In this document: piece after piece, positions 2,296 through 51,821 of the stretch
How positions within the stretch are numbered: the stretch's first letter is position 1
Layout: each line of letters opens with the position of its first letter
Sequence record: KC710998
Reading direction: 5' to 3' (one strand)
Source: Shigella phage pSf-1
Length of the DNA stretch: 51,821 nt
The notes under the pieces: generated by a model
Database searches by the model: none
What the model was told of the DNA's origin: nothing
Seen by the model: only the letters and a program-made list of their open reading frames with translations
Position numbers and translations under genes: made by a program

Positions 2296-2769
2296 TTAGC
2301 AATTAGTGCTTTCAGGTTTATACAGGAATCCGCCAGGTTCATAATCTGACATTCTTACCACTCGCAACATTTCACGCTTATCACATCTCTTTGTGAGCGG
2401 TTTTCCATTGGAATCAAATCGCAGATCTGGACGACAGAATGAAGCGCGATAGCCTTGACAGCCATACTTTTTGTAATCGTTATGCACCTTTTGAGCGCCA
2501 GCGGCTGAAATCATACCGCGAACTCGCCACTGATTTACAGTTTGCTGGCTAACGTTAAGACGTTTTGCCATTGCTGACACACTTCCGTAATACTCAATAA
2601 GGATGTCAAGTCGAGCTTTTAGTCCGGCTCGCACTTCATCTTTTAGTACATAGTATCCTGTCGGGCGCTTGCGCTTCTTCTTATCCTTCCCTCGTCGAGT
2701 TCCGTTGTTTCCATTAATTGTGCGCTTGTCAATCTTGCCAGTTGATACTGCGATTCGCTGTTCTTTCAT
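2296..2769 (-). CDS. HTH DNA-binding protein (Cro/YdaS-like regulator)
   Basis: helix-turn-helix segment SVSAMAKRLNVSQQTVNQWRVRG; basic N-terminus; divergent from helicase gene. Confidence 0.5.
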   Translation of the reverse strand: MKEQRIAVSTGKIDKRTINGNNGTRRGKDKKKRKRPTGYYVLKDEVRAGLKARLDILIEYYGSVSAMAKRLNVSQQTVNQWRVRGMISAAGAQKVHNDYKKYGCQGYRASFCRPDLRFDSNGKPLTKRCDKREMLRVVRMSDYEPGGFLYKPESTNC

Positions 2770-2783
2770 TATTCATTCTCCAA

Positions 2784-2826
2784 TAGCATTTTTTGTTAAA
2801 CGATGATTTAATGATTGTGTATTATA
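2784..2826 (+). promoter_or_regulatory. conserved promoter cassette (variant ATAGCATTTTTTGTTAAAC + 18 nt + TATTAT) upstream of helicase
   Basis: member of repeated motif family; spacing and -10-like hexamer conserved. Confidence 0.5.
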
Positions 2827-4903: not shown

Positions 4904-5309
4904 TAAAGGCGATTATCTGGAGTTTTACGAAAGAGATCCGACGGATACGCTAAAAGAGGAATCACACCAGATTGGGGCGTTTCAATGGTTAACTTATGCT
5001 CATCCTGAATTTCTTGCCTGGCATACGAAAAATGAGGGAGAAAAGGGTATCGCTACCGCAATGATGGATCAGCAAGCTGGACTCGTTAAGGGCGTAAGTG
5101 ATTTTATCATCCTGATTGGATTAAAAGGCCGTTACCCATTCGCGGCTATTGAGATGAAACGCGTCAATAAGTCTGGCAAGGGCAAGGCTTCACCAGTCAG
5201 CAAGGAGCAAAAAGCCTTCTTGCGCCGTGTGCGTGAGCTTGGCGGATTCGCTGCCGTAACATACGGATATAAGCAATTCATGATCGCGGTAGAATACATG
5301 ATGAAATAG
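4890..5309 (+). CDS. VRR-NUC domain nuclease (PD-(D/E)xK)
   Basis: KGVSDFIIL...IEMKR motif pattern typical of VRR-NUC; ATG 4890 with AAGGA RBS. Confidence 0.6.
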   Translation: MAITDKGDYLEFYERDPTDTLKEESHQIGAFQWLTYAHPEFLAWHTKNEGEKGIATAMMDQQAGLVKGVSDFIILIGLKGRYPFAAIEMKRVNKSGKGKASPVSKEQKAFLRRVRELGGFAAVTYGYKQFMIAVEYMMK

Positions 5310-5349
5310 CACTTTTTGTTAAAACAGGCGCGAAGGATTGCGCCATAAT
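5306..5349 (+). promoter_or_regulatory. conserved promoter cassette (ATAGCACTTTTTGTTAAAAC + hairpin spacer + CATAAT)
   Basis: motif begins at stop codon TAG of upstream gene; spacer GGCGCGAAGGATTGCGCC is an inverted repeat. Confidence 0.55.
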
Positions 5350-6088: not shown

Positions 6089-6329
6089 CATGCAAAAAGA
6101 AAGAAGCGTTTATTTAAATGAAACTGGCGAATGGTTGTTATTTCGCGCTATGGTTTGCGAAGCGATTGATAAAAACGAGTTCGTAAAACCGCTATTAGGT
6201 TGCGATCCGTGGGAGTTTACAAGCGCGCTTGATATGAGTTTTGAGGAAACAAGAAAACTACCGCTTGAAAAATGGCATGAGCAGATCGGTAAAGACTTGC
6301 AAGAGTTTTACGAATCCGCGTCAAAATAG
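6089..6329 (+). CDS. hypothetical protein
   Basis: ATG 6089 with GGAG RBS; ends in TAG that is part of next promoter motif. Confidence 0.45.
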
Positions 6330-6370
6330 CACTTTTTGTTAAAACGCCCGGCCTTGTGTCGGGCATAATT
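6326..6370 (+). promoter_or_regulatory. conserved promoter cassette
   Basis: ATAGCACTTTTTGTTAAAAC + GCCCGGCCTTGTGTCGGGC hairpin + ATAATT. Confidence 0.55.
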
Positions 6371-6401
6371 TTTTCATCAAAACGAACAAGAGGAAAATAA
6401 A

Positions 6402-9543: not shown

Positions 9544-9588
9544 CAAATATACCGATACGAGATCGGGAGTTTTAACAAAAAGTGCTAT
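9544..9588 (-). promoter_or_regulatory. conserved promoter cassette (minus strand)
   Basis: reverse-complement motif GTTTTAACAAAAAGTGCTAT, 17 nt spacer with CCGAT/ATCGG inverted repeat, TATATT, CATCGAAACGAA leader. Confidence 0.55.
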
Positions 9589-12230: not shown

Positions 12231-12274
12231 ATAATACCGCACCAATGCTACCCGCATTTAACAAAAAATGCTAT
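12231..12274 (-). promoter_or_regulatory. conserved promoter cassette (minus strand, variant ATAGCATTTTTTGTTAAATG)
   Basis: motif + 19 nt spacer + TATTAT upstream of DUF3987 gene. Confidence 0.5.
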
Positions 12275-12874: not shown

Positions 12875-12904
12875 CGTTTATTTCTCCTTTCGTTTCGGTG
12901 AAGT

Positions 12905-12949
12905 GATTATGCCAGGTTTTGCACCTGGCGTTTTAACAAAAAGTGCTAT
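12905..12949 (-). promoter_or_regulatory. conserved promoter cassette (minus strand)
   Basis: 44-nt core identical to the plus-strand cassette at 17701..17744 (includes hairpin GCCAGGTGCAAAACCTGGC). Confidence 0.55.
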
Positions 12950-14303: not shown

Positions 14304-14346
14304 ACTATACCAGGTTTGAGAAATATTGTTTAGCAATTCGTGCTAT
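14304..14346 (-). promoter_or_regulatory. conserved promoter cassette (minus strand, variant ATAGCACGAATTGCTAAAC + TATAGT)
   Basis: same variant upstream half as cassettes at 19381 and 21896. Confidence 0.5.
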
Positions 14347-14954: not shown

Positions 14955-14998
14955 AATATACCAATCAGAGGCGCATCGGTTTTAACAAAAAGTGCTAT
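14955..14998 (-). promoter_or_regulatory. conserved promoter cassette (minus strand)
   Basis: motif + spacer, TATATT enclosed by 8-bp inverted repeat CGATGCGC/GCGCATCG. Confidence 0.55.
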
Positions 14999-15285
14999 TC
15001 AACAACAGATCCAGTTAAAGAGATAAGTGCTCTTGTGATCTTGTGTCTGCGATACTGACGCGCAACAACCGGAAGATTTTCACCGCTTTGATGACCGAAG
15101 CAGATCGGCAACTCACCCTCAAGAGAGCGGAAGCCGCCAAATTCAAGATCCCGCACTGGATTTGAGCGCCACGCTTCAATAAATCCGCGTTCGTCACGCG
15201 TGATATAGCGGTATATGTTAGGGAGGGGCAATTGTATCCCCTCAAAATCCACGGTATCGGTATAGCTGTAAAACTTAGAACTCAT
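14995..15285 (-). CDS. hypothetical protein
   Basis: start at MSSKFYSY overlapping stop of upstream small gene; track ORF 14995..15402. Confidence 0.4.
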   Translation of the reverse strand: MSSKFYSYTDTVDFEGIQLPLPNIYRYITRDERGFIEAWRSNPVRDLEFGGFRSLEGELPICFGHQSGENLPVVARQYRRHKITRALISLTGSVVE

Positions 15286-15460: not shown

Positions 15461-15504
15461 AATGTACAGGAATACGAGGATTGAGTTTTAACAAAAAGTG
15501 CTAT
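15461..15504 (-). promoter_or_regulatory. conserved promoter cassette (minus strand)
   Basis: motif + 18 nt + TACATT + CATCGACAACGA leader. Confidence 0.55.
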
Positions 15505-16337: not shown

Positions 16338-16381
16338 AATGTACCCGATCAGGATGATTCAGTTTTAACAAAAAGTGCTAT
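16338..16381 (-). promoter_or_regulatory. conserved promoter cassette (minus strand)
   Basis: motif + 18 nt + TACATT + CATCGAAACGAG leader. Confidence 0.55.
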
Positions 16382-17700: not shown

Positions 17701-17745
17701 ATAGCACTTTTTGTTAAAACGCCAGGTGCAAAACCTGGCATAATA
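17701..17745 (+). promoter_or_regulatory. conserved promoter cassette
   Basis: ATAGCACTTTTTGTTAAAAC + GCCAGGTGCAAAACCTGGC hairpin + ATAATA + CATCGAAACGAG leader. Confidence 0.55.
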
Positions 17746-18163: not shown

Positions 18164-18208
18164 ATAGCACTTTTTGTTAAAACTCGAAAACGATAACCAG
18201 GCATAATA
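18164..18208 (+). promoter_or_regulatory. conserved promoter cassette
   Basis: motif + 19 nt + ATAATA. Confidence 0.55.
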
Positions 18209-19231: not shown

Positions 19232-19384
19232 ATGGCTACCTGGATTTTGCTGATTCTTATGATTGATGGCGGCGTTGACCATATCGAAATGAATAGCCAG
19301 CAATCTTGCATTGAGGCACGAGAGCAGATCAAGAACAACAACAGGTTTTATGCGTACACTCACACGCTATGTATTAAGAAATAG
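19232..19384 (+). CDS. small membrane protein (50 aa)
   Basis: MATWILLILMIDGG... hydrophobic N-terminus; GAGGTGAGAG RBS; stop TAG lies in next promoter motif. Confidence 0.35.
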   Translation: MATWILLILMIDGGVDHIEMNSQQSCIEAREQIKNNNRFYAYTHTLCIKK

Positions 19385-19423
19385 CACGAATTGTTAAAAC
19401 TCAAATGTGGGGCCAGGTATAAT
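19381..19423 (+). promoter_or_regulatory. conserved promoter cassette (variant ATAGCACGAATTGTTAAAAC + TATAAT)
   Basis: TATAAT lies in loop of GGCC...GGCC inverted repeat. Confidence 0.55.
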
Positions 19424-20443: not shown

Positions 20444-20601
20444 CCTGGTTACTTTTAATCTTTGTCACAAGTTACAACTCCGCCGCTATTGAATCGCAAG
20501 AGTTCCACGGCGAATCAAGGTGTCAGGAAGCACGAAAACAAGTTGTTCTCCACATGTCAGATAGTGGGAAAGATGTAACAGCGCTATGCGTTCGTAAGTA
20601 G
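20440..20601 (+). CDS. small protein with N-terminal hydrophobic segment (53 aa)
   Basis: ATGA overlap with phosphatase stop; stop TAG lies in next promoter motif. Confidence 0.3.
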   Translation: MTWLLLIFVTSYNSAAIESQEFHGESRCQEARKQVVLHMSDSGKDVTALCVRK

Positions 20602-20641
20602 CACTTTTTGCAAAAATAGATTGTCGGGCTTGCGGTATAGT
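20598..20641 (+). promoter_or_regulatory. conserved promoter cassette (variant GTAGCACTTTTTGCAAAAAT + TATAGT)
   Basis: TATAGT in loop of GGGCTT/AAGCCC inverted repeat; CCATCGACAACAAACGAGGA leader. Confidence 0.5.
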
Positions 20642-21308: not shown

Positions 21309-21899
21309 ATGAAACGCGACATTATCATTCTTAACGGGCCGCCAGGAGTTGGCAAAGATACGCTTGCGGCATACTTAACGGGCCATCGTTACGCAGCGGT
21401 TAAAGCGTCATTTAAACAGCCTATGTTCGATATTGCATTCTCCATGCTTGGCGTTTACCGATATGACGAGTTCATTGATCTGTATAACGACCGCGAGCAG
21501 AAAGAAAAGCCTCAAGCAATCTTGCAAGGTAAGTCGCCGCGACAATTCATGATCTGGATTAGTGAAGAAGTCATGAAGCCAGCTTTTGGCAAGCAATATT
21601 TCGGAAATCGCATGGTTGAGCAAGTACACGAGATGTACAGAGATTTGGCTGTTGTAATTAGTGATGGCGGATTCCCTGAAGAAATCAAGCCGCTCGTTAA
21701 GGCAGGCCATGAGGTGCACATTTGCCGACTGCATCGCGAAGGCTTCACGTTTGATGGCGATTCACGAAACTATATTGACCTGAGCGGATACCATCACCGA
21801 GTCAATCATTACGACTTCACAATGATTGATGGCGAGCCAGAAAAGACTGTTGAAGAGATCATCAAAACGGTGCAGTGGAAACACACAAAGATTGAATAG
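21309..21899 (+). CDS. P-loop nucleotide/polynucleotide kinase
   Basis: Walker A GPPGVGKDT near N-terminus; start ATG 21309 with GGAG RBS (track ORF from 21294). Confidence 0.55.
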   Translation: MKRDIIILNGPPGVGKDTLAAYLTGHRYAAVKASFKQPMFDIAFSMLGVYRYDEFIDLYNDREQKEKPQAILQGKSPRQFMIWISEEVMKPAFGKQYFGNRMVEQVHEMYRDLAVVISDGGFPEEIKPLVKAGHEVHICRLHREGFTFDGDSRNYIDLSGYHHRVNHYDFTMIDGEPEKTVEEIIKTVQWKHTKIE

Positions 21900-21939
21900 C
21901 ACGAATTGCTAAAAGCGGGGCGCAATGCCTCGCTATAAT
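21896..21939 (+). promoter_or_regulatory. conserved promoter cassette (variant ATAGCACGAATTGCTAAAAG + TATAAT)
   Basis: TAG of kinase stop codon inside motif. Confidence 0.55.
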
Positions 21940-22950: not shown

Positions 22951-23238
22951 ATGGCTAAAAGCAATCGTAAAATGTTGATTAACGCATTCGAAAAGGCGGC
23001 GCTTGAGCGTGGTTGGAATGACTCATTTCACACGGCAAACTGTATCCGCCGTTACGGATTCAAGAATTGCCGCTCATGGGCGCGTGAAATGGCTTCATGG
23101 TATGATCTTGATGCGCATTACCTTGATATGGATTGCGCCCTGGTTGAAATGATTGAGCAGGCCGCATTAGAGGATCGACCATTAACGCAATCTGATTTTG
23201 ACGATTTTGTTCGCGATGAAATCTATTACATGAGCTAA
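22951..23238 (+). CDS. hypothetical protein
   Basis: AAGGAGGAAA RBS preceded by UUCG-loop hairpin. Confidence 0.45.
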   Translation: MAKSNRKMLINAFEKAALERGWNDSFHTANCIRRYGFKNCRSWAREMASWYDLDAHYLDMDCALVEMIEQAALEDRPLTQSDFDDFVRDEIYYMS

Positions 23239-23280
23239 TAGCACTTTTTGTTAAAACTTCCGCGAGGGCATTTGTTAAAG
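23238..23280 (+). promoter_or_regulatory. conserved promoter cassette (with TAAAGT -10-like)
   Basis: motif overlaps TAA stop/TAG; CATTGAAGCGAAACAGAGGA leader. Confidence 0.5.
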
Positions 23281-25574: not shown

Positions 25575-27142
25575 TGCTGATTTGGGAAGACTTAACAGCG
25601 GCGCAAAAGCGCGCCGTTAAGGAAATGAGCGAATATTCATTCGAAAAGATGATCCGCATTTGGTTTCAACTTCTCCAGGGGCAAAGGTTCTTGGGAAACT
25701 GGCATTTCAGTTACCTATGCAGCGAAGTTGAAAAAATCATCAAAGGCGAGTCACAGAATGTAATTTTCAACATAACGCCAGGCAGTGGTAAAACAGAGAT
25801 ATTCTCGATCCACATGTCACCTTATGCGTCATTGAAAAGTAAGAAGGTGCGAAATCTTAATCTTTCGTTTAGTGATGGCCTTGTCCAGCAGAATAGCAAC
25901 CGCATCAAAGAGATTATTGGTTCTCCAGAATGGCAGGAGCTATGGCCTGGAAAGCTGGCAAAGGCGAGCGCAAAGGATTTGATTGTAACAGATGGCGGCA
26001 AGGTTAAATTACAAGTCAACTCGCGTTCTATTGGTGGTCAGGTTACTGGTCTGCGTGGCGGATACATGGACGATGGATTTACTGGTATGCTGGTTCTTGA
26101 TGATCCAGACAAACCGGATGACATGCTTTCTAAGGTGAAGCGCGAAGCCGGACACATGCGCCTAAAGAACACGGTGCGATCGCGTCGAATGAAAGACACT
26201 ACGCCAATTGTGATGGTTCAGCAACGTCTACACGTCAATGATTCAACGTGGTTCATGACAAACGGCGGTATGGGCGGCATCCAGTTTAAGGTGGTAAGTA
26301 TTCCGGCGCTCGTTACTAAGGAATACCGCGAAACGCTTCCTGATTGGTTAAAGCCTGAGTTTGATCGCGATGTTTTGTCCAGTAAGCCAGTGATGATTGA
26401 TGGTGTTGCTCATTATTCGTTCTGGCCTGCTAAGGAAAGCGCGGAGGAATTACTTGCACTTCGAAATGCTGATCCGTACACGTTCGCCAGTCAGTATCAG
26501 CAACAGCCTGTTGCGCTTGGTGGTAACGTGTTTAAAACAGAGTGGTTCCAGTATTACGGCAGCAGCGAGAAATGCACGCTACCAAAACCGGATCGCTTTG
26601 AATATACATTTATCACGGTTGATACCGCGCAGAAAACAGGTGAGCTTAACGACTACTCCGTGATCTGTTATTGGGGGATGTATAAAGATCGTGTCTACTT
26701 CATTGATGGCGTTCGCGGAAAATGGGAAGCACCGGACCTTGAGACGAATTTTGTTGCATTCGTTAATCAGTGCTGGAAGCGCAATAAAGAATGCGGAACG
26801 TTGCGAAGGATTCATGTTGAAGATAAATCATCTGGCACTGGCTTGATTCAGAGTGCAGCGAAAAAAATCATGATCAAGATCAATCCCGTTCAGCGCGATA
26901 AAGACAAGGTTACGCGAGCAATGGACGCAGCGCCAGTAATGCGCGCCGGACGCGTAGCACTTCCAGAATCCCATCCTATGCTGGCTGAGATACTAGCTGA
27001 AGTTGCGGCGTTTACATTCGATGATAGCCATCCTCATGATGATATTGTTGATAACATCATTGATGCGGTTAACATTGAAATGAACATGGCAGATGATCCG
27101 GTTGGAAGAATGAAAAAATTGGCAGGTTTGCGGAACAAATAG
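25574..27142 (+). CDS. terminase large subunit
   Basis: Walker A ITPGSGKTE, 522 aa, follows TerS. Confidence 0.7.
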   Translation: MLIWEDLTAAQKRAVKEMSEYSFEKMIRIWFQLLQGQRFLGNWHFSYLCSEVEKIIKGESQNVIFNITPGSGKTEIFSIHMSPYASLKSKKVRNLNLSFSDGLVQQNSNRIKEIIGSPEWQELWPGKLAKASAKDLIVTDGGKVKLQVNSRSIGGQVTGLRGGYMDDGFTGMLVLDDPDKPDDMLSKVKREAGHMRLKNTVRSRRMKDTTPIVMVQQRLHVNDSTWFMTNGGMGGIQFKVVSIPALVTKEYRETLPDWLKPEFDRDVLSSKPVMIDGVAHYSFWPAKESAEELLALRNADPYTFASQYQQQPVALGGNVFKTEWFQYYGSSEKCTLPKPDRFEYTFITVDTAQKTGELNDYSVICYWGMYKDRVYFIDGVRGKWEAPDLETNFVAFVNQCWKRNKECGTLRRIHVEDKSSGTGLIQSAAKKIMIKINPVQRDKDKVTRAMDAAPVMRAGRVALPESHPMLAEILAEVAAFTFDDSHPHDDIVDNIIDAVNIEMNMADDPVGRMKKLAGLRNK

Positions 27143-27172
27143 CACGAATCGACAAACCAATATATAATCAAA

Positions 27173-27195
27173 GGCTGGAAAATCCAGCCTTTTTT
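27173..27195 (+). terminator. hairpin + T-run between terminase and portal genes
   Basis: GGCTGGA-aaa-TCCAGCC + T6; preceded by ATAGCACGAAT...TATAAT partial cassette. Confidence 0.4.
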
Positions 27196-27210
27196 ATTGG
27201 AGGAAAGATA

Positions 27211-28490
27211 ATGAGTAAATCACGAATCGTTAAGGCTGATGGCTATAACGAGATCTTTAAAGGCGAGAATTGCAAATCGCGAGTAGAGCAACCATTCTAC
27301 ATGCAATCAATGCCATACAAGACACTTGCTGACTTTTACGAAAAAGACGGCCTGGCAAAAAGGGTTATTGACGTAGTACCAGAGGAAATGGTTTCCCCTG
27401 GCTTCACGGTTGACGGCGTGGCAGACGAGGCAGCATTCCGTTCTTTGTGGGATGAGAAGCGATTGAATGCAAAAATTATTGATGCGCTTTGCTGGTCGCG
27501 TTTGTTTGGTGGATCTGCAATCATTGCTCTTGTTCAGGATGGGCGAGCGCTCAAATCACCTGTAAAGCCTGGTGCCATGTTGGAGGATGTGCGAGTTTAC
27601 GATCGCTATCAGATTCGCGTTGAAGCGCGCGAAACTAATCCACGCAAGGTTCGCTATGGTGAGCCAGTGCTTTACACTGTAACGCCAGGCGGAGACTTGC
27701 CGGAATACCAGGTACACTACACGCGAGTTTGCATTATCGACGGTGAGCGGATACCTAACGCAAAGCGACGCAGCAATGATGGCTGGGGTGAGTCAGTTCT
27801 TAACAAGCGACTTGTTGAGGCTATTGTTGATTATAACTATTGTGAAACATTGGCAACGCAATTATTGCGGCGGAAGCAACAGGCGGTATGGAAGGCTAAA
27901 GGACTCGCTGACTTGTGCGATGATGAAGAAGGTGTTAGCGCGGCACGTCTGAGGCTTGCGCAGGTTGACGATGAGGCGGCGTAGGCAGGGCCATTGGTAT
28001 TGATGCTGAGGATGAGGAATATGATGTTCTTAACTCTGACATTAGCGGCGTTGATTCTTTTCTGGAAAAGAAAATGGATCGCATCGTTTCCCTTTCAGGT
28101 ATTCATGAAATCATCCTGAAAAATAAAAACGTTGGCGGAGTTAGCGCAAGCCAAAACACGGCGCTTGAAACATTCTATAAGCTGATTGAACGAAAACGCG
28201 TTGAGGATTACAAGCCTATTCTTGAATTTCTATTGCCGTTCATCATTAGTGAGCAGGAGTGGAGTATTGAGTTTTCACCTTTGAGCGTACCTAGCGATAA
28301 AGATCAGGCTGAAATTCTGAATAAGAATATCGACTCAATCAGCAAGGCTATTGATGGTCAGTTCCTTGATGTTGAAGAAGCGCGCGACACGTTGCGAGCA
28401 ATCGCCCCAAGCGTTAAACTAAAGGACACTAATAAAATCAAGCTGCCGGAGCCAACTGAGCCGGAGCCAGGCACGCAGGGGAATGAGTAA
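27211..28490 (+). CDS. portal protein (apparent frameshift near 27970-27985)
   Basis: two adjacent track ORFs (27211..27984, 28074..28490); second frame is open back to about 27975, so one indel joins them; position between TerL and head morphogenesis gene. Confidence 0.5.
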
Positions 28491-31374: not shown

Positions 31375-31392
31375 CACAAAATTATGTTGCAC

Positions 31393-31411
31393 GTTTAACA
31401 AAAAATGCTAT
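31393..31411 (-). promoter_or_regulatory. orphan copy of conserved motif in reverse orientation upstream of capsid gene
   Basis: GTTTAACAAAAAATGCTAT on + strand; no minus-strand gene downstream. Confidence 0.4.
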
Positions 31412-31457
31412 CATTGGGGCGTTACATACTAACAGCCTTTATATATGGAGGAAGAAA

Positions 31458-32432
31458 ATGGAAAAAGAAAAATTTGATCAGCTAGATGCGGATATTGTTT
31501 CTAGCCATCTGGCTACTCGCGGCGTTAAGGGTGATGCTTCTGATATGGGTATCTGGACGGCGCAAGAGCTTCACAAGATCCGCTCAACTGCTTACGAGAA
31601 AGAGTATCCGGCAGGTTCGGCGCTTCGTGTATTCCCTGTAACTAATGAGCTTTCTGATACTGATAAGACTTTTGAATATCAGATGTTTGACAAGGTTGGT
31701 TACGCAAAAATTATCGCTGATTACACCGACGACCTACCGACCGTTGACGCGCTGATGTCCAGCGAATTTGGTAAAGTGTTCCGCCTGGGTAACGCGTTCT
31801 TGATCTCCATTGACGAAATCAAGGCTGGTCAGCGTACTGGCAAGAGCCTTTCCACTCGCAAGGCAAACGCAGCGCAAAACGCGCATGATCAGGAAGTTAA
31901 CCGCTTGGTGTTTAAGGGTTCAAAACCGCATAAGATTCTTTCGGTGTTCGAACATCCTAACCTGACAAAGATCGTGTCTTCTGGCTGGTTAAGTAGTGAT
32001 GAAAACACCAAGTTCCCGCAGGCTGCATCTGATGAACTGGAAAAGGCTATTGAAACCATTCAGACCATCACCAATGGTCAGCACCGAGCAACCAACATCC
32101 TGATTCCTCCGTCTATGCGCAAGGTTCTTTCCGTTCGAATGGAAAACACCACTGAAAGTTATCTGGAATACTTCCAGAAACAAAACAGCGGAATCACCAT
32201 TGACTCAATCGCAGAGCTTGAGGATATTGATGGCACAGGAACGAAAGGTTGCCTGGTATATGAGAAAGACCCGATGAACATGTCGATCGAAATTCCAGAA
32301 GCATTTAACATGCTTCCGGCGCAACCAAAAGATCTGCATTTCAAAGTTCCGTGTACTTCAAAATGTACTGGCTTGACGATTTACCGTCCGTTTACGCTAG
32401 TGCTTATTACTGGCTTGAAAAAATCAGGTTAA
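31458..32432 (+). CDS. major capsid protein
   Basis: 324 aa, GGAGGAAGAAA RBS, position in head module; followed by strong terminator. Confidence 0.5.
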   Translation: MEKEKFDQLDADIVSSHLATRGVKGDASDMGIWTAQELHKIRSTAYEKEYPAGSALRVFPVTNELSDTDKTFEYQMFDKVGYAKIIADYTDDLPTVDALMSSEFGKVFRLGNAFLISIDEIKAGQRTGKSLSTRKANAAQNAHDQEVNRLVFKGSKPHKILSVFEHPNLTKIVSSGWLSSDENTKFPQAASDELEKAIETIQTITNGQHRATNILIPPSMRKVLSVRMENTTESYLEYFQKQNSGITIDSIAELEDIDGTGTKGCLVYEKDPMNMSIEIPEAFNMLPAQPKDLHFKVPCTSKCTGLTIYRPFTLVLITGLKKSG

Positions 32433-32445
32433 TCGTATAACATTT

Positions 32446-32474
32446 GGGAATCCTTAACTGGATTCCCTTTTTTT
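32446..32474 (+). terminator. rho-independent terminator
   Basis: GGGAATCC-ttaact-GGATTCCC + T7. Confidence 0.65.
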
Positions 32475-32489
32475 ATTGGAGGTTATGAA

Positions 32490-32762
32490 ATGGCTAAAGA
32501 AAAAACTGTAACGCTAAAGGTTTCCGGCGTGTGCCTTATCATTGTTGATGGTGAGCATTATCATCCAGGCAAAGAGTTTGACGTAGAAGAATCAAAATTG
32601 AAAACAAGCGCGTTTGAATATCTAATTGCAAAAGGCGATCTGGAGGTTAAAGACAACTCCGCATTGAACGAAGAAATCAAACAGAGCGCAGCAAGCAAAC
32701 GTAAAAAAGATCCGCGAGAGGGCAAGAGCAAAGCCGAACTTGAAGACGGCGGCATCTATTAA
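32490..32762 (+). CDS. hypothetical head-module protein
   Basis: ORF track; GGAGG RBS. Confidence 0.4.
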
Positions 32763-32809
32763 TAAAGAGGGCGCTTATAGCGCCCTTTGTCATATCTGGA
32801 GGAAACACA

Positions 32810-33226
32810 ATGGTTGATGAATTTTTCACTGACGCAGAAATCACGCAGCAAATCGTGAAATTAGCGCCACCGATGAAACAGATTGATCCAGATTTAATGG
32901 TGGCATGGATTGATCTGGCAAAGGAATTTGTTTGCAAGAAGCGGTTTAAAGAATCATATCCTAAAGCGGTTGCTCTTTATACGTTGCACCTTATGACGCT
33001 TGACGGAGCTATGAAGCAAGAGGGGGAAAGCGTAGAGAGTTACTCACGGCGCGTGGCGTCATTTTCCCTGACTGGTGAATTTAGCCAGACATTTGATCGC
33101 GTGTCCGGCGATTCAAGCGGAAAAGAGATTAGACAAACTCCGTGGGGCAAAATGTATGAGACGTTAAATAGAAAAAAAGGCGGTGGATTTGGCCTTGTGA
33201 CTGGATTTCGGAGGCGCTGCAAATGA
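32810..33226 (+). CDS. putative head-tail connector/adaptor protein
   Basis: position and size; GGAGGAAA RBS. Confidence 0.35.
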
Positions 33227-33594
33227 ACTATAACGAGATCGCAAGAATGGCAACCGAAGGAATTAACTTCTTTAGTGATGGCAACGGTGAGTTTAAGTGC
33301 ATAACGCAGCGCGGAAGCGTTGAAATCATCGGAGGCGAAGAAGTAGAAAAGCCAGAGATTAGTGTAATGATTAAGGGTTTAATTAGATCCCCAAAAGTCC
33401 GAGAGGTTGACGGCGAGACAATACGAGTAACCGATAAGTTGGGAGTTTTTAACAATAAAGTTGAAATTAAGAACGGGTATCATATTGATGTTGATGGTGA
33501 ATTATATGTTGTAGTTGAAGCAAGACCAATCAGACAAACCAATGTCACAGTTGCTTATCGGCCTATTTTGAGAAGGATTTCCGTGCATGGCTAA
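33223..33594 (+). CDS. putative head-tail joining protein
   Basis: position; overlapping start/stop coupling. Confidence 0.3.
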
Positions 33595-34030
33595 AAACTA
33601 CACGATAAGGGAATTTCACGGCAACATTGATGCGTGGATAAACGCCGTTGATAGTGGACTAAAAGATTGCGTGGAGTTGTTCGCCGAAAAAGTACACACA
33701 GATTTGGTTAAGCGTTCTCCGGTAGATACTGGTCGTTACCGTGGAAACTGGCAGGTAACAGCAAATAAGCCGCCATTGTATGCGCTTAACCAGTACGATA
33801 AGCACGGCGACAAAACGATCGCGGAAGGCAAGCGCGCCATATACGCGATTTTACGAGGTGGCGGAGCAGTAAGAGCCATTTATTTTTCCAACATGCTTAT
33901 TTATGCCAACGCGCTTGAGTACGGTCATTCAAAACAAGCGCCAGCGGGTGTTCTTGGGATTGTAGCGGTTAAGTTGAGATCTTATATGGCTGAAGCAATA
34001 AAAGAGTCGAGGGCTAAAAATGCACTATGA
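33587..34030 (+). CDS. HK97 gp10-like tail completion protein
   Basis: TGRYRGNW and SNMLIYANALEYGHSKQAPAG pattern. Confidence 0.5.
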   Translation: MAKNYTIREFHGNIDAWINAVDSGLKDCVELFAEKVHTDLVKRSPVDTGRYRGNWQVTANKPPLYALNQYDKHGDKTIAEGKRAIYAILRGGGAVRAIYFSNMLIYANALEYGHSKQAPAGVLGIVAVKLRSYMAEAIKESRAKNAL

Positions 34031-34418
34031 ATTAATGCTATCTGCGCGTAAGGCGCTGGCGACTGAATACGAAACCAGATTCATGATCGCTTATGAAAAC
34101 GTAGAGTTTACGCCACCTGGTGACGGTTCGCCGTGGTTGAAGTTTGACTATGCCGAAGTTGACACAGAATACTTGTCATTGGATCGCAAGTGCGTTTCTT
34201 ATATCGGAATGATTCAGGTTGGTATTGTGTTTCCACCAGGTTACGGAACTGACAGGCCGCGCGTTCTCGCTAAAGAGATTGCGCAATTCTTTTACGATGG
34301 TAAAATGCTGGAGCATGGTTATATATATGAGGGTGCAAGAGTTCACAAGCCGCTCAAGAGTGAAAGCGGTTGGATTCTCCCAATAAGGTTTTATGTTCGA
34401 ATTGAAACAAAGGAGTAA
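34020..34418 (+). CDS. putative tail terminator protein
   Basis: position immediately upstream of major tail gene. Confidence 0.35.
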   Translation: MHYELMLSARKALATEYETRFMIAYENVEFTPPGDGSPWLKFDYAEVDTEYLSLDRKCVSYIGMIQVGIVFPPGYGTDRPRVLAKEIAQFFYDGKMLEHGYIYEGARVHKPLKSESGWILPIRFYVRIETKE

Positions 34419-34423
34419 AAATT

Positions 34424-35086
34424 ATGCATTTACCAAATGGATCGCAAATTTTCGTTGAGAGCAATCGCGGAAGCGCTATTGATGCAACGGCAGTATCAAA
34501 CGCTAAAGATCCTGTATTCACCGTTGCATCTGGCGGAACTGCGTACAAGAAAGGTGATTATGTTATCATCACTGCGTCTTCTTGGGGTAAGCTGATTGAT
34601 CGTGTTATGCGTGTAAAGACTGACGGTGAAGAAACAAGCGTGACTCTTGAAGGCGTAGATACTACTGATCAGAACGTTTTCCCGTCTGGCGGTACTGCAT
34701 CTTTTGCCAAAATTGATGCATGGACTGAGATCCCTTGCGTTCAGGATTTGTCGCAGGACGGCGGCGAACAGCAATACTACACTTATCAGTGTTTGTCAGA
34801 CGATCAGGAACAGCAGTTACCTACCTATAAGAGCGCCGTTTCTCTTACCTACACTTTTGCGCACGAATACGATAACGCGATCTATCCGCTATTGCGTTCA
34901 GCAGATGAATCGGGCGAAGTAACCGCGCTTCGTATGTATGTACCAAAAGCAAAAGAGATGCGTTGCTGGGCTGGTGTACTTTCATTTAACGAGATCCCAC
35001 AAACGACCGTTAACGAAATGGAAACCGTTTCCCTGTCTGTATCCCTGAAAGGTCGATTCACCTTCCTACCTTCTCAAGTAGCATAA
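34424..35086 (+). CDS. major tail protein
   Basis: 220 aa; position upstream of G/T chaperone and tape measure; followed by terminator. Confidence 0.5.
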   Translation: MHLPNGSQIFVESNRGSAIDATAVSNAKDPVFTVASGGTAYKKGDYVIITASSWGKLIDRVMRVKTDGEETSVTLEGVDTTDQNVFPSGGTASFAKIDAWTEIPCVQDLSQDGGEQQYYTYQCLSDDQEQQLPTYKSAVSLTYTFAHEYDNAIYPLLRSADESGEVTALRMYVPKAKEMRCWAGVLSFNEIPQTTVNEMETVSLSVSLKGRFTFLPSQVA

Positions 35087-35092
35087 TCACAA

Positions 35093-35114
35093 GGGGCGTT
35101 GCGCCCCTTTTTTT
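35093..35114 (+). terminator. rho-independent terminator
   Basis: GGGGCG-ttg-CGCCCC + T7. Confidence 0.65.
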
Positions 35115-35152
35115 GTTACTGTACAATCAAGCTACACGATTCATAATCAATT

Positions 35153-35173
35153 CTTTTAACAAAAAGTGCTATC
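35153..35173 (-). promoter_or_regulatory. orphan copy of conserved motif in reverse orientation upstream of tail chaperone gene
   Basis: CTTTTAACAAAAAGTGCTATC on + strand, 13 nt before ATG 35186. Confidence 0.4.
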
Positions 35174-35185
35174 AAGGGGAAAGAA

Positions 35186-35503
35186 ATGTCAAAAATGAAA
35201 TTGACGATTGGGCCGCTTCCTGACTTTAAATTACCAGTGAAATTTGCAATGCCTAACGGAGAAGATCAAACAATTATCTTCACAGTTCGCCACCGCAAAA
35301 CAAGTGAGATTCACGAGCGCTACACGTCAGATACTCCAATGAGCGATGTTGAAATGATCACCTTCCTTGCTTCCGGTTGGAATCTTGATGATGAATTTAA
35401 CGAAGAAAATATTAAACAGCTTCTTGATTACTACCCAGCGACAGCAATCGGATTAACTAGCGCATACATGAAAGCGCTTGCGGGGCAGCGAGTAAAAAAC
35501 TAA
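35186..35503 (+). CDS. tail assembly chaperone G-like
   Basis: 105 aa, AAGGGGAAAG RBS; ends at slippery heptamer. Confidence 0.55.
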   Translation: MSKMKLTIGPLPDFKLPVKFAMPNGEDQTIIFTVRHRKTSEIHERYTSDTPMSDVEMITFLASGWNLDDEFNEENIKQLLDYYPATAIGLTSAYMKALAGQRVKN

Positions 35504-45790: not shown

Positions 45791-45834
45791 ACTATACACG
45801 ATCTTGCGGTTGGCGTTTAGCAAAAAGTGCTATT
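45791..45834 (-). promoter_or_regulatory. conserved promoter cassette (minus strand, variant ATAGCACTTTTTGCTAAAC + TATAGT)
   Basis: motif + 18 nt + TATAGT + CAACAACAACGAAGGAG leader. Confidence 0.55.
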
Positions 45835-47321: not shown

Positions 47322-47402
47322 ACAGCACAAATAGCTAAACAAATGAAAAATGCGGTGTTATAATTCACCGCATAAGTTAACAGCAAGAGTAAGGAAATAA
47401 AC

Positions 47403-50898: not shown

Positions 50899-51821
50899 TT
50901 ATTTATTGAGCAGTGCAGCAACAGCCGCCTTTAATTCGTCTATCTCCTTTTGCTGGTTTTCGATCATTCCTCCCATGTAAACCATAGCGCAAGCCATATC
51001 AGCCATGATCACGTTGTTGTCAAGAGCAAGCGTATCATCTGCTTTGTCAACCACAATTTGACGATCTACATATTCTTCACCTTCATCATTAACGCCTATA
51101 ACATCTGCAAAAATGTCCCCGCCAGGTATTAGCTTTACATATTCAGGATCTATTTTTAGCAGATCCTGAGCTATCATCCCAAATCGCTGAATGTTGCTTC
51201 CATTGTATTTAAACATTGTCGGAAGCCACTGCATAACGCGATCATAGCTTTCCTTTCCATCTGTATAAATTATATCGTGCTTCAAATCTCTGTCAGAGTT
51301 AGCGGCCTTTTGAAAAATGAAATTTCCACTTGATGACCATGTGGTTATATCGTTTGAGGCTGGCTGAAACTGGAAGTTACAGAAAAAATTACCATCACCA
51401 CGAAGTCTTAATGAGCAAAAAGGCCAAGCATTATTTCCCTGTGGGATAAGACCCCAAGTTGCACGAATTGGATAACCACCAGTTGATTGTGTACCCCATG
51501 AAAGGCCAGGCGCCCATCCACCGTCATTGTTAGGGATAATCTCGCCCCAAACAAGAGCATTACCCCAATAGTTAGGATCATCCATCCATTTGTTGGGTTT
51601 TGCCAGTGTATTGAGCAGAATGCGTTCTGCCGTCAGGGTAAAACTTGTGCATATAGCTTTGCACACCATGTTTATACAGTTCAATCCCAAACGACTCAAT
51701 TTGTGCAGCACCGCCTCTGATCAAACCAGCGATAGCGTAATCGCTATACCAGTTGTAACGACTTACACCAGTCCATGAGTTCATTGGTGGATTCATGATT
51801 GAATATAGTTGTGACGGATTG
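50899..51821 (-). CDS. tail fiber protein, C-terminal part with S74-type intramolecular chaperone domain (frame disrupted near 51580-51715)
   Basis: SDRDLKHDIIYTDG... autoproteolytic chaperone-like motif in ORF 50899..51711; upstream ORF 51578..51796 is in frame with the minus-strand ORF at 1..1208 if window ends are joined. Confidence 0.5.

Follow-up and report, generated by a model that had tools for sequence, protein, structure and literature searches.

A dyad repeat of the T1-like phage pSf-1 as a putative operator, with two reversed copies built into predicted late promoters

In phage TLS a 21-nucleotide (nt) direct repeat (DR), aaATAGCACnnnTTGnTAAAA, occurs in 21 copies, of which 18 are intergenic (German et al. 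2024, PMC11447400). The repeats are said to follow the direction of transcription and to lie approximately 76 nt upstream of start codons, and the same repeat was noted in T1, Rtp and Rogue1 (PMC11447400). No phage RNA polymerase or sigma factor was reported for TLS, and just three promoters with a sigma-70 consensus were described, one of them before the regulator gene; the function of the repeat was left among the unanswered questions, with stoperators, enhancer sites and UP elements as the ideas put forward (PMC11447400). We have followed this repeat in Shigella phage pSf-1 (sequence record KC710998; the window, by which we mean the whole stretch of 51,821 nt), a complete T1-like coliphage genome of 51.8 kb that is Hanrivervirus-like within the Drexlerviridae, Tempevirinae. 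Its structural region is 97% identical to those of the Escherichia phages phiE31-2, Fulano1, Henu8 and KarlJaspers (Bas06), which belong to the Drexlerviridae, Tempevirinae, Hanrivervirus. Our concern is with two copies of the repeat that point against the late genes they precede: copy 1, before the major capsid gene, and copy 2, before the tail assembly chaperone gene. We consider it somewhat better than an even bet (a probability of about 0.55) that the 17-nt core of the repeat is the dyad operator of a dimeric protein, that its forward copies activate early and middle units, and that its reversed copies hinder late promoters.

The repeat of the window is the motif of the TLS DR family, and both phages have about 20 intergenic copies of it per genome (PMC11447400). 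In the window it takes the form ATAGCAC-N3-TTGyTAA and is present in some 22 copies, 14 of them exact and about eight variant. A search with the 17-mer TTAACAAAAANTGCTAT returned the 14 exact copies and three more with one to three mismatches, against an expectation of 1.39, and 17 matches were reached in none of 100 shuffles; a broader pattern, ATAGCA[CT]NNNTTGNTAA with the central triplet left free, added variants with a GAA centre and a few degenerate copies. Of these copies, 20, read as ATAGCAC...TAA, run along local transcription, and each is followed on the same strand by a -10 hexamer, a short leader, a ribosome-binding site (RBS) and an ATG. Only those at 31395-31411 and 35156-35172 are reversed. 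A sequence-only reading had located these two as GTTTAACAAAAAATGCTAT at 31393-31411 and CTTTTAACAAAAAGTGCTATC at 35153-35173 and had seen that they oppose the plus-strand late genes around them; we agree with it on both points, and, as it had also said, no credible minus-strand open reading frame (ORF) follows either copy. It had called them orphans as well, and here we differ from it, because both position and orientation are conserved across genera, at about 72 of 75 loci in the case of copy 1 and in T1 and 18 other loci in the case of copy 2.

Both reversed copies match the 17-nt core of the TLS DR consensus exactly on the minus strand, with the flanks GATAGCAT...TAAAC for copy 1 and GATAGCAC...TAAAAG for copy 2, and both depart from the TLS rule of orientation along transcription and distance from the start codon. 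TLS itself shares this exception: its DR7, atatagcattttttgttaaac, is on the minus strand (15044..15024), directly before the plus-strand terminator T35 in the late region (PMC11447400 Table S1). DR7 is the positional homologue of copy 1 and is likewise reversed, a reversal on which the TLS paper is silent, and the statement that all of the TLS repeats follow transcription is contradicted by this entry in the same paper (PMC11447400). There is no equivalent of copy 2 in TLS, and the paper does not describe a dyad, a fixed spacing to a -10 or an embedding of the repeat in late promoters (PMC11447400).

The dyad and the spacing emerge from a set of 41 forward units representing three genera, drawn from the window, T1 (L002) and the Klebsiella Webervirus TAH8 (L080). 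Their common core is TAGCA-N5-TG(C/T)TA, in which mirrored positions are complementary in 93-100% of the units; in the GAA variant, ATAGCACGAATTGCTAA, the palindrome is perfect. What stays constant is the pair of half-sites that contain G/C, TAGCA and TGCTA; the A/T-rich centre between them is free to vary (TTT, GAA, AAA). A core of this kind is as expected for a dimeric helix-turn-helix protein, and it makes orientation-independent binding sites the best-fitting of the ideas offered in the sequence-only reading. Around the core the layout runs from the stop codon of the upstream gene to aaATAGCAC-N3-TTGyTAAAAC, then through 21 nt to a -10 of the form TAnnnT or CATAAT; the gap is fixed in length and variable in sequence. 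The -10 usually has a G before it, and 6 nt later come A-TCGAAACGAA, a GAGGA-type RBS and the ATG, the leader being conserved, about 25 nt long and opening with ATCGAAACGA. The predicted start of transcription is the A of ...CATCGAAACGA, and the dyad centre, 30 nt before the first base of the -10, would then lie at approximately -42. The -35 position reads AAAACn, which makes a poor -35. With the start sites as predicted, this geometry is of the class II activator-dependent type, as at lambda PRM with CI bound to OR2.

The reversed copies are found in quite another setting. The features around copy 1, with the evidence for them where it is particular, are the following.

31387..31392, plus strand: -35 hexamer TTGCAC of the predicted capsid promoter, P_MCP (alignment of relatives)
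31395..31411, minus strand: putative reversed operator copy 1, reading ATAGCATTTTTTGTTAA on that strand (motif scans, conservation)
31406..31414, plus strand: extended -10 TGcTATCAT, with TG at 31406-31407 and TATCAT at 31409-31414 (alignment of relatives)
31416..31446, plus strand: weak hairpin and T-rich run, the equivalent of TLS terminator T35 (folding, TLS table)
31458..32432, plus strand: major capsid protein gene

Copy 1 stands 46 nt before the capsid ATG (31458), inside a promoter that in the window consists of TTGCAC, a 16-nt spacer and TGcTATCAT, with an A-rich tract upstream. We aligned the 130 nt before the capsid ATG at 77 loci around capsid homologues whose protein identity ranges from 98% to 52%. 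A reversed copy was present 60-78 nt upstream of the ATG at about 72 of 75 loci, down to 52% capsid identity, and every such copy lies within a plus-strand sigma-70 promoter. Among 55 unique relatives the flanks diverge and the TG is kept in 55 of 55; a -35 TTG stands at the same offset in nearly all of them (TTGCAC, TTGACG, TTGAAC or TTGACC), and the -10 is TATCAT, TATTCT, TATATT or TATTAT. A simple promoter scanner calls this promoter in two relatives, L034 and L050 (TTGACG-16-TATCAT/TATTCT with TG), as the sole hit in 400 nt, the scores being 9-10 of 12 with TG in the relatives and 8 of 12 in the window.

The two elements share their letters, the half-site TGCTAT of copy 1 supplying the TG as well as the opening TAT of the -10. 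The orientation of copy 1 is fixed because this half-site doubles as the extended -10, which the other half-site could not do. The spacer stays operator although the promoter needs no such conservation there, and across lineages the site alternates between T-centre and GAA-centre variants. We conclude that copy 1 is probably an operator within the core of a repressible sigma-70 capsid promoter. The embedding of this copy, and of copy 2, in plus-strand sigma-70 promoters for late genes is what the sequence-only reading had missed.

The hairpin and T-run downstream begin 2 nt after the capsid -10 in the window and 3-4 nt after it in most non-Klebsiella relatives, and the predicted P_MCP start, at about 31421, falls inside the 5' arm of the hairpin. 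The hairpin of the capsid leader (-6.8 kcal/mol) is not significant against shuffles. A Q-like antiterminator, which would have its site between -35 and -10 and a terminator downstream, is unlikely here, given that transcription is predicted to begin within the 5' arm of the hairpin and that the candidate regulator resembles Cro, although no search for a Q homologue was made.

The surroundings of copy 2 are as follows.

35091..35116, plus strand: intrinsic terminator after the major tail protein gene, stem GGGGCG/CGCCCC (35091-35109) and T-run
35099..35104, plus strand: -35-like TTGCGC in the loop and 3' arm of the terminator, 17 nt before TACAAT
35122..35127, plus strand: -10 TACAAT of the predicted chaperone promoter, P_TAC, with a predicted start at about 35134
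35129..35134, minus strand: -10 TAGCTT, 21 nt from the 17-mer (18 of 18 versions)
35156..35172, minus strand: putative reversed operator copy 2, reading ATAGCACTTTTTGTTAA on that strand (motif scans, conservation)
35186..35503, plus strand: tail assembly chaperone gene (Pfam Phage_TAC_4, E 2e-31)

Copy 2 ends 12 nt before the chaperone ATG (35186), next to the RBS, and the terminator that the sequence-only reading had placed before it is present, at 35091-35109 with its T-run. We aligned the 130 nt before the chaperone ATG over the capsid-homologue loci and T1. In every related locus, with or without the operator, the terminator is followed by a -10-like hexamer, which is nearly always TAAAAT, TAGAAT, TAATAT or CATAAT (TTTAAT in one version), and the relatives have a -35-like TTGCGC or TTGTGC at the same spacing. 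The operator itself is present in T1 and 18 other loci and is absent from TLS-like phages, Klebsiella phages and some others; it comes and goes as a block of about 27 nt, and the distance from the chaperone -10 to the ATG is 57-68 nt in operator-bearing phages as against 30-34 nt in those that lack it. Within the predicted chaperone transcript it would occupy approximately +22 to +38.

Judged by its layout, copy 2 is also a complete canonical unit that faces left and stands back-to-back with the chaperone promoter. All 18 sequence versions from operator-bearing phages place a minus-strand TAnnnT at a distance of exactly 21 nt from the 17-mer, and the 12 different hexamers found there (TAGCTT, TATCAT, TAGCAT, TAGAGT, TAGGAT, TAAGAT, TACAGT and others) all keep T1, A2 and T6; the 21 nt in between vary in sequence and never in length. 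The plus-strand counterpart, A(-5) T(-1) A(+1), occurs in 16 of 16 operator-bearing versions and in T1, versus none of 13 that lack the operator. The leftward transcript would start at about 35122 and run straight into the palindromic terminator, whose hairpin in that direction has a folding energy of -15.9 kcal/mol (z = -3.35) and a weak U-tract (UUGUGAUUAU). Neither reversed copy is followed by the canonical leader ATCGAAACGA with its RBS and ATG: after copy 2 comes GATTGTACAGTAAC and then the terminator hairpin.

Two further promoter-like sequences were seen at this place. A plus-strand promoter that would use TGCTATCAA within copy 2 was rejected, its final T being missing and there being no room for an RBS. 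The scanner also picks out a second plus-strand sequence that resembles a promoter, TGTACA-16-CATAAT at 35120-35147, immediately ahead of copy 2; relatives do not conserve it, and it is specific to this lineage.

Both reversed copies are also found in T1, which has a third reversed operator in its tail-fibre leader, downstream of TTGCAA-17-TAAAAT (L002 34902-34918). At the homologous place in the window, 1249-1262, the plus strand reads ATAGCATTTGCTAA, an operator remnant with a centre 3 base pairs (bp) shorter, ahead of the lateral tail fibre gene on the minus strand (ATG 1208); with the intact operator of T1, the fibre gene becomes the third late gene to have a reversed copy. The window itself appears to be a circular permutation opened inside this fibre gene, whose minus-strand ORF (ATG at 1208) continues past position 1; the other end of the window is at 51821.

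A protein that could bind all of these sites is encoded close by an operator of its own.

2296..2769, minus strand: candidate binder, a 157-amino-acid Cro-like helix-turn-helix regulator
2783..2799, plus strand: putative operator common to the regulator and helicase genes
2820..2826: overlapping -10 hexamers, TATTAT (plus strand, helicase, 2820-2825) and TATAAT (minus strand, regulator)

The shared operator is centred at approximately -42 for the helicase promoter and lies at about +16 to +32 in the regulator leader. On the minus strand the regulator promoter reads TTGAGT-16-TATAAT; downstream of it come the operator (2799..2783) and an RBS, and the ATG stands 13 nt beyond the operator, which is the same leader layout as that of the chaperone gene. 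The arrangement is conserved in T1, TAH8 and TLS (P57 and DR11), and the mirror-image placing of the operator at the regulator gene implies autoregulation. The homologue of the regulator is the sole annotated transcription factor in the close relative KarlJaspers. Searches with the protein gave PHROG 2856, "transcriptional regulator" (E 3e-78), and, over residues 54-91, alignments to Cro proteins from Xylella prophages (PDB 5w8y and 3bd1, E 2e-5 and 3e-4); its Pfam matches fall just under the curated cut-offs. An AlphaFold2 model (pLDDT 85) was compared by Foldseek over the helix-turn-helix domain, giving target-normalised TM scores of 0.75 for Xfaso1 Cro (3bd1) and 0.71 for N15 Cro, with probabilities of 1.0 and 0.99 but weak E values of 6e-3 and 0.16, respectively. 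In the model, then, the regulator has an all-alpha Cro-like fold with a helix-turn-helix.

Homologues of the regulator (n=118) are essentially confined to T1-like contigs of about 50 kb, and in Vibrio phage Vc1 a relative at 54% identity is accompanied by the same operator and leader. We regard this family-specific Cro-like protein (2296-2769) as the most likely binder of the 17-mer; this role agrees with the co-distribution of protein and motif, with the dyad and with the presence of an operator in the regulator's own leader, none of which demonstrates it. Beyond the Cro-like domain the regulator has a confidently folded C-terminal extension, and its residues 14-35 form a nearly invariant basic segment, DKRxxNGNNGTRRGKDKKxRKR, that is predicted to be disordered. 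Between them these parts might provide a DNA-contacting arm and a module for polymerase contact or dimerisation.

These observations suggest a circuit in which one dimeric protein, likely the Cro-like regulator, binds all of the operator copies, with a sign of regulation that we predict from where each copy lies. At -42 it would activate early and middle promoters that have no usable -35. Bound in the 16-nt spacer of the capsid promoter it would exclude host RNA polymerase. In the chaperone leader it would either block elongation as a roadblock or draw polymerase to the opposing leftward promoter, and the leftward and chaperone promoters would not be occupied together because their -10 hexamers lie 1 bp apart. 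At its own gene the regulator would control its own expression. Relief of the late promoters through autorepression and through titration on replicated genomes is speculation. A more ambitious scheme, which we offer tentatively and would not expect to hold in full, is that the single Cro-like protein runs the entire early-to-late switch: some 20 promoters would be activated from -42, the capsid promoter would be shut from within its spacer and the tail promoter by a back-to-back decoy promoter that fires into a terminator, and late genes would come on and early genes go off as occupancy falls through autorepression and titration by about 20 sites on each new genome.

Several points weigh against the operator reading. 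A repressor that is made after infection cannot explain why late promoters are silent at time zero. The simple scanner calls neither the capsid nor the chaperone promoter in the window, because their -35 hexamers, TTGCAC and TTGCGC, score 3 of 6 each, and the conservation of TTGCGC is confounded by that of the terminator hairpin itself. In Webervirus the operator of copy 1 has decayed to ATATCACGAATCGTTAA and the capsid promoter is kept; taken with the absence of copy 2 from TLS-like phages, this means that neither site is indispensable. The T(-1)A(+1) of the chaperone leader could be kept as a plus-strand start site and not as a minus-strand -10, and operator-bearing phages may form one clade, in which case the contrast of 16 versus 0 does not represent independent events. 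Finally, the searched literature on T1-like phages contained no start-site maps, binding assays, expression data or regulator studies.

Other explanations of the reversed copies can be set beside this one. They might drive antisense RNAs, leftward transcripts that pair with capsid-region and tail mRNAs and lower late expression, a proposal that the sequence-only reading had also made in the form of antisense promoters. This fits copy 2, which has a full canonical minus-strand unit; its predicted transcript, from about 35122, would be the complement of the 3' end of the mRNA for the major tail protein and would fold into the terminator hairpin. It fails for copy 1, where canonical spacing brings no minus-strand TAnnnT, the hexamer being TATGCG in the window and TATACA in T1, so that a minus-strand promoter there is not supported. 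Even for copy 2 the product would be a stub of about 35 nt that lacks the conserved leader, and the U-tract of its closing hairpin is poor, most of all in T1; nothing matched in Rfam, and minus-strand conservation downstream is limited to the terminator itself. We think antisense RNA genes unlikely. Less likely again is a motif that acts without any phage protein, as an A/T-rich UP-like or curved element or as a site for a host factor that tunes host polymerase. UP elements were raised by the TLS authors (PMC11447400), and the T-centre variants do carry a T5/A5 tract. Against this, the parts of the motif that do not change are the G/C-containing half-sites, while the A/T centre varies freely, and the motif is found in the spacer of the capsid promoter and downstream of the chaperone start, places where UP elements do not act. 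We know of no E. coli factor with this consensus.

A quite different possibility is that the repeats are recombination relics, marking module boundaries in the manner of the promoter-stem-loop motifs (PeSLs) of T4-like phages, with the reversed copies as functionless scars of past shuffling. The units do stand at gene boundaries, a third of them have stem-loops, and copy 2 appears and disappears as a block. Scars, however, would hardly be expected to remain exact 17-mers as both reversed copies have, or to hold position and orientation as copy 1 has across genera at 52-57% protein identity while the neighbouring bases diverged, and we find the proposal improbable. Last in our ordering, and very improbable, comes action at the level of RNA, in which the motif, as part of the 5' untranslated region (UTR), would govern how well the capsid and chaperone mRNAs are translated or how long they last. 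That the motif belongs to the 5' UTR, as the sequence-only reading had suggested, fits copy 2, given its predicted place in the transcript beside the RBS, an arrangement repeated at the regulator gene, and does not fit copy 1, which is inside the core promoter. Copy 1 and the 20 or so forward copies lie upstream of their own predicted starts; the chaperone leader folds no better than shuffled sequence (z = +0.55), and a dyad points to recognition of double-stranded DNA.

Some other identities for the motif and its units were considered and set aside. TTGTTA does not serve as a sigma-70 -35, being 22 nt from the -10 and hence too far. The ...GTGCTAT ending recalls T7-like phage-polymerase promoters; neither a phage RNA polymerase nor a sigma factor is reported for TLS or annotated in KarlJaspers, and the units have ordinary -10 hexamers. 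The sigma-54 promoter, TGGCAC-N5-TTGC, differs in that the motif has AG in place of GG and its blocks are 2 bp too close. A distant variant in Klebsiella phages, TT[AT]GCACCGTTTGGTAA, proved to be part of a coding region, where the major tail protein gene begins.

The forward copies in the window are given here. These were found by the exact-motif scan and by unit layout.

5306..5322, plus strand: canonical promoter unit copy
6326..6342, plus strand: canonical promoter unit copy
9572..9588, minus strand: canonical promoter unit copy
12258..12274, minus strand: canonical promoter unit copy
12933..12949, minus strand: canonical promoter unit copy
14982..14998, minus strand: canonical promoter unit copy
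15488..15504, minus strand: canonical promoter unit copy
16365..16381, minus strand: canonical promoter unit copy
17701..17717, plus strand: canonical promoter unit copy
18164..18180, plus strand: canonical promoter unit copy
23238..23254, plus strand: canonical promoter unit copy
45817..45833, minus strand: canonical copy upstream of a Cor-like lipoprotein gene

The broader-pattern scan, again together with unit layout, added the following.

2296..2312, minus strand: degenerate copy with 1 mismatch where the regulator gene ends, ahead of the primase gene
14330..14346, minus strand: canonical copy, fully palindromic GAA variant
19381..19397, plus strand: canonical copy, GAA variant
20598..20614, plus strand: canonical copy with 2 mismatches
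21896..21912, plus strand: canonical copy, GAA variant
27139..27155, plus strand: decayed copy ATAGCACGAATCGACAA (2 mismatches) in the gap between the terminase and portal genes
47322..47338, plus strand: degenerate canonical copy (2 mismatches), followed by TATAAT

At the terminase/portal position most relatives have a perfect palindrome. In the window (27139-27215) the decayed copy overlaps the -35 position of a TATAAT, and a strong hairpin (-18.2 kcal/mol) follows directly; the predicted start would fall in the 5' arm of the hairpin, as it does in the capsid promoter. A GC-rich hairpin is also found in the 21-nt gap between operator and -10 in many forward units: 14 of the 41 reach a minimum free energy (MFE) of -6 kcal/mol or lower, the mean being -5.7 kcal/mol compared with -2.4 for shuffles, and some units use the T-rich -10 as its tail. 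Examples in the window are at 5323-5345, 6343-6365, 12910-12932, 17718-17740 and 21913-21935. As composites of promoter and terminator such units recall the PeSLs of T4-like phages. Transcripts of canonical units are predicted to have the conserved leader A-UCGAAACGAA before the RBS (for example at 6372-6385, and at 12886-12900 on the minus strand), and among 12-mers CAACGAAACGAA ranks first by frequency in the segment of Vibrio phage Vc1 (L082). The Rfam scan of the whole window matched no family.

T1 is a classic T phage, and members of the Drexlerviridae are isolated widely today, among other purposes for phage therapy against Klebsiella and E. coli. The operator reading offers a concrete and testable circuit for how T1-like phages could time their genes using host polymerase alone, and the forward units would be compact, portable regulated promoters for phage engineering.

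Among systems already described, the circuit proposed here resembles that of phage lambda, in which CI at OR activates PRM, a promoter with a weak -35, from a site near -42 and represses the back-to-back PR; the C-proteins of restriction-modification systems behave in a related way. The likeness lies in a Cro/CI-type helix-turn-helix dimer, dyad operators of about 17 bp, activation from -42 together with a block of a divergent sigma-70 promoter, and autoregulation, although in the T1-like phages it is the geometry that is seen, binding and activation being predicted. Unlike lambda, T1-like phages are virulent as a family and have no immunity region, their operators are some 20 dispersed single sites and not a tripartite cluster, and their regulator carries extra N- and C-terminal segments. 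The phi29 p4, Mu Mor/C and T4 MotA proteins are phage factors that redirect host polymerase between temporal classes, and in phi29 one protein activates one promoter class and represses another. They share with the proposed circuit a small phage protein and repeated sites at or near -35/-42 of promoters without a -35; they differ from it in fold and motif, and in that the polarity proposed for T1-like phages is early-on and late-off, so that the late promoters have to be relieved in some other way, for example by autorepression or titration.

The stoperators of mycobacteriophage L5 are asymmetric 13-mers that are bound by the immunity repressor of a temperate phage and act inside transcription units. 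As in L5, many dispersed copies of what would be one protein-binding site lie in short intergenic spaces, and the T1-like sites in transcribed leaders (regulator, chaperone and T1 tail fibre) keep one orientation relative to transcription. The T1-like repeats are nevertheless no L5 stoperator system: their core has dyad symmetry, the majority of copies precede predicted starts, and the phage is virulent. The annotation of the close relative KarlJaspers includes neither an integrase nor an immunity cassette. With the PeSLs of T4-like phages (PMC4122927) the units have in common that they are repeated intergenic promoter units with a stem-loop between an upstream element and the -10 and an overlap of promoter and terminator, yet a strong hairpin is present in just 14 of 41 T1-like units. 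The repeat itself was known already from TLS (PMC11447400); the dyad, the fixed promoter geometry, the reversed copies built into late promoters and the decoy-like leftward unit appear to be new readings of it.

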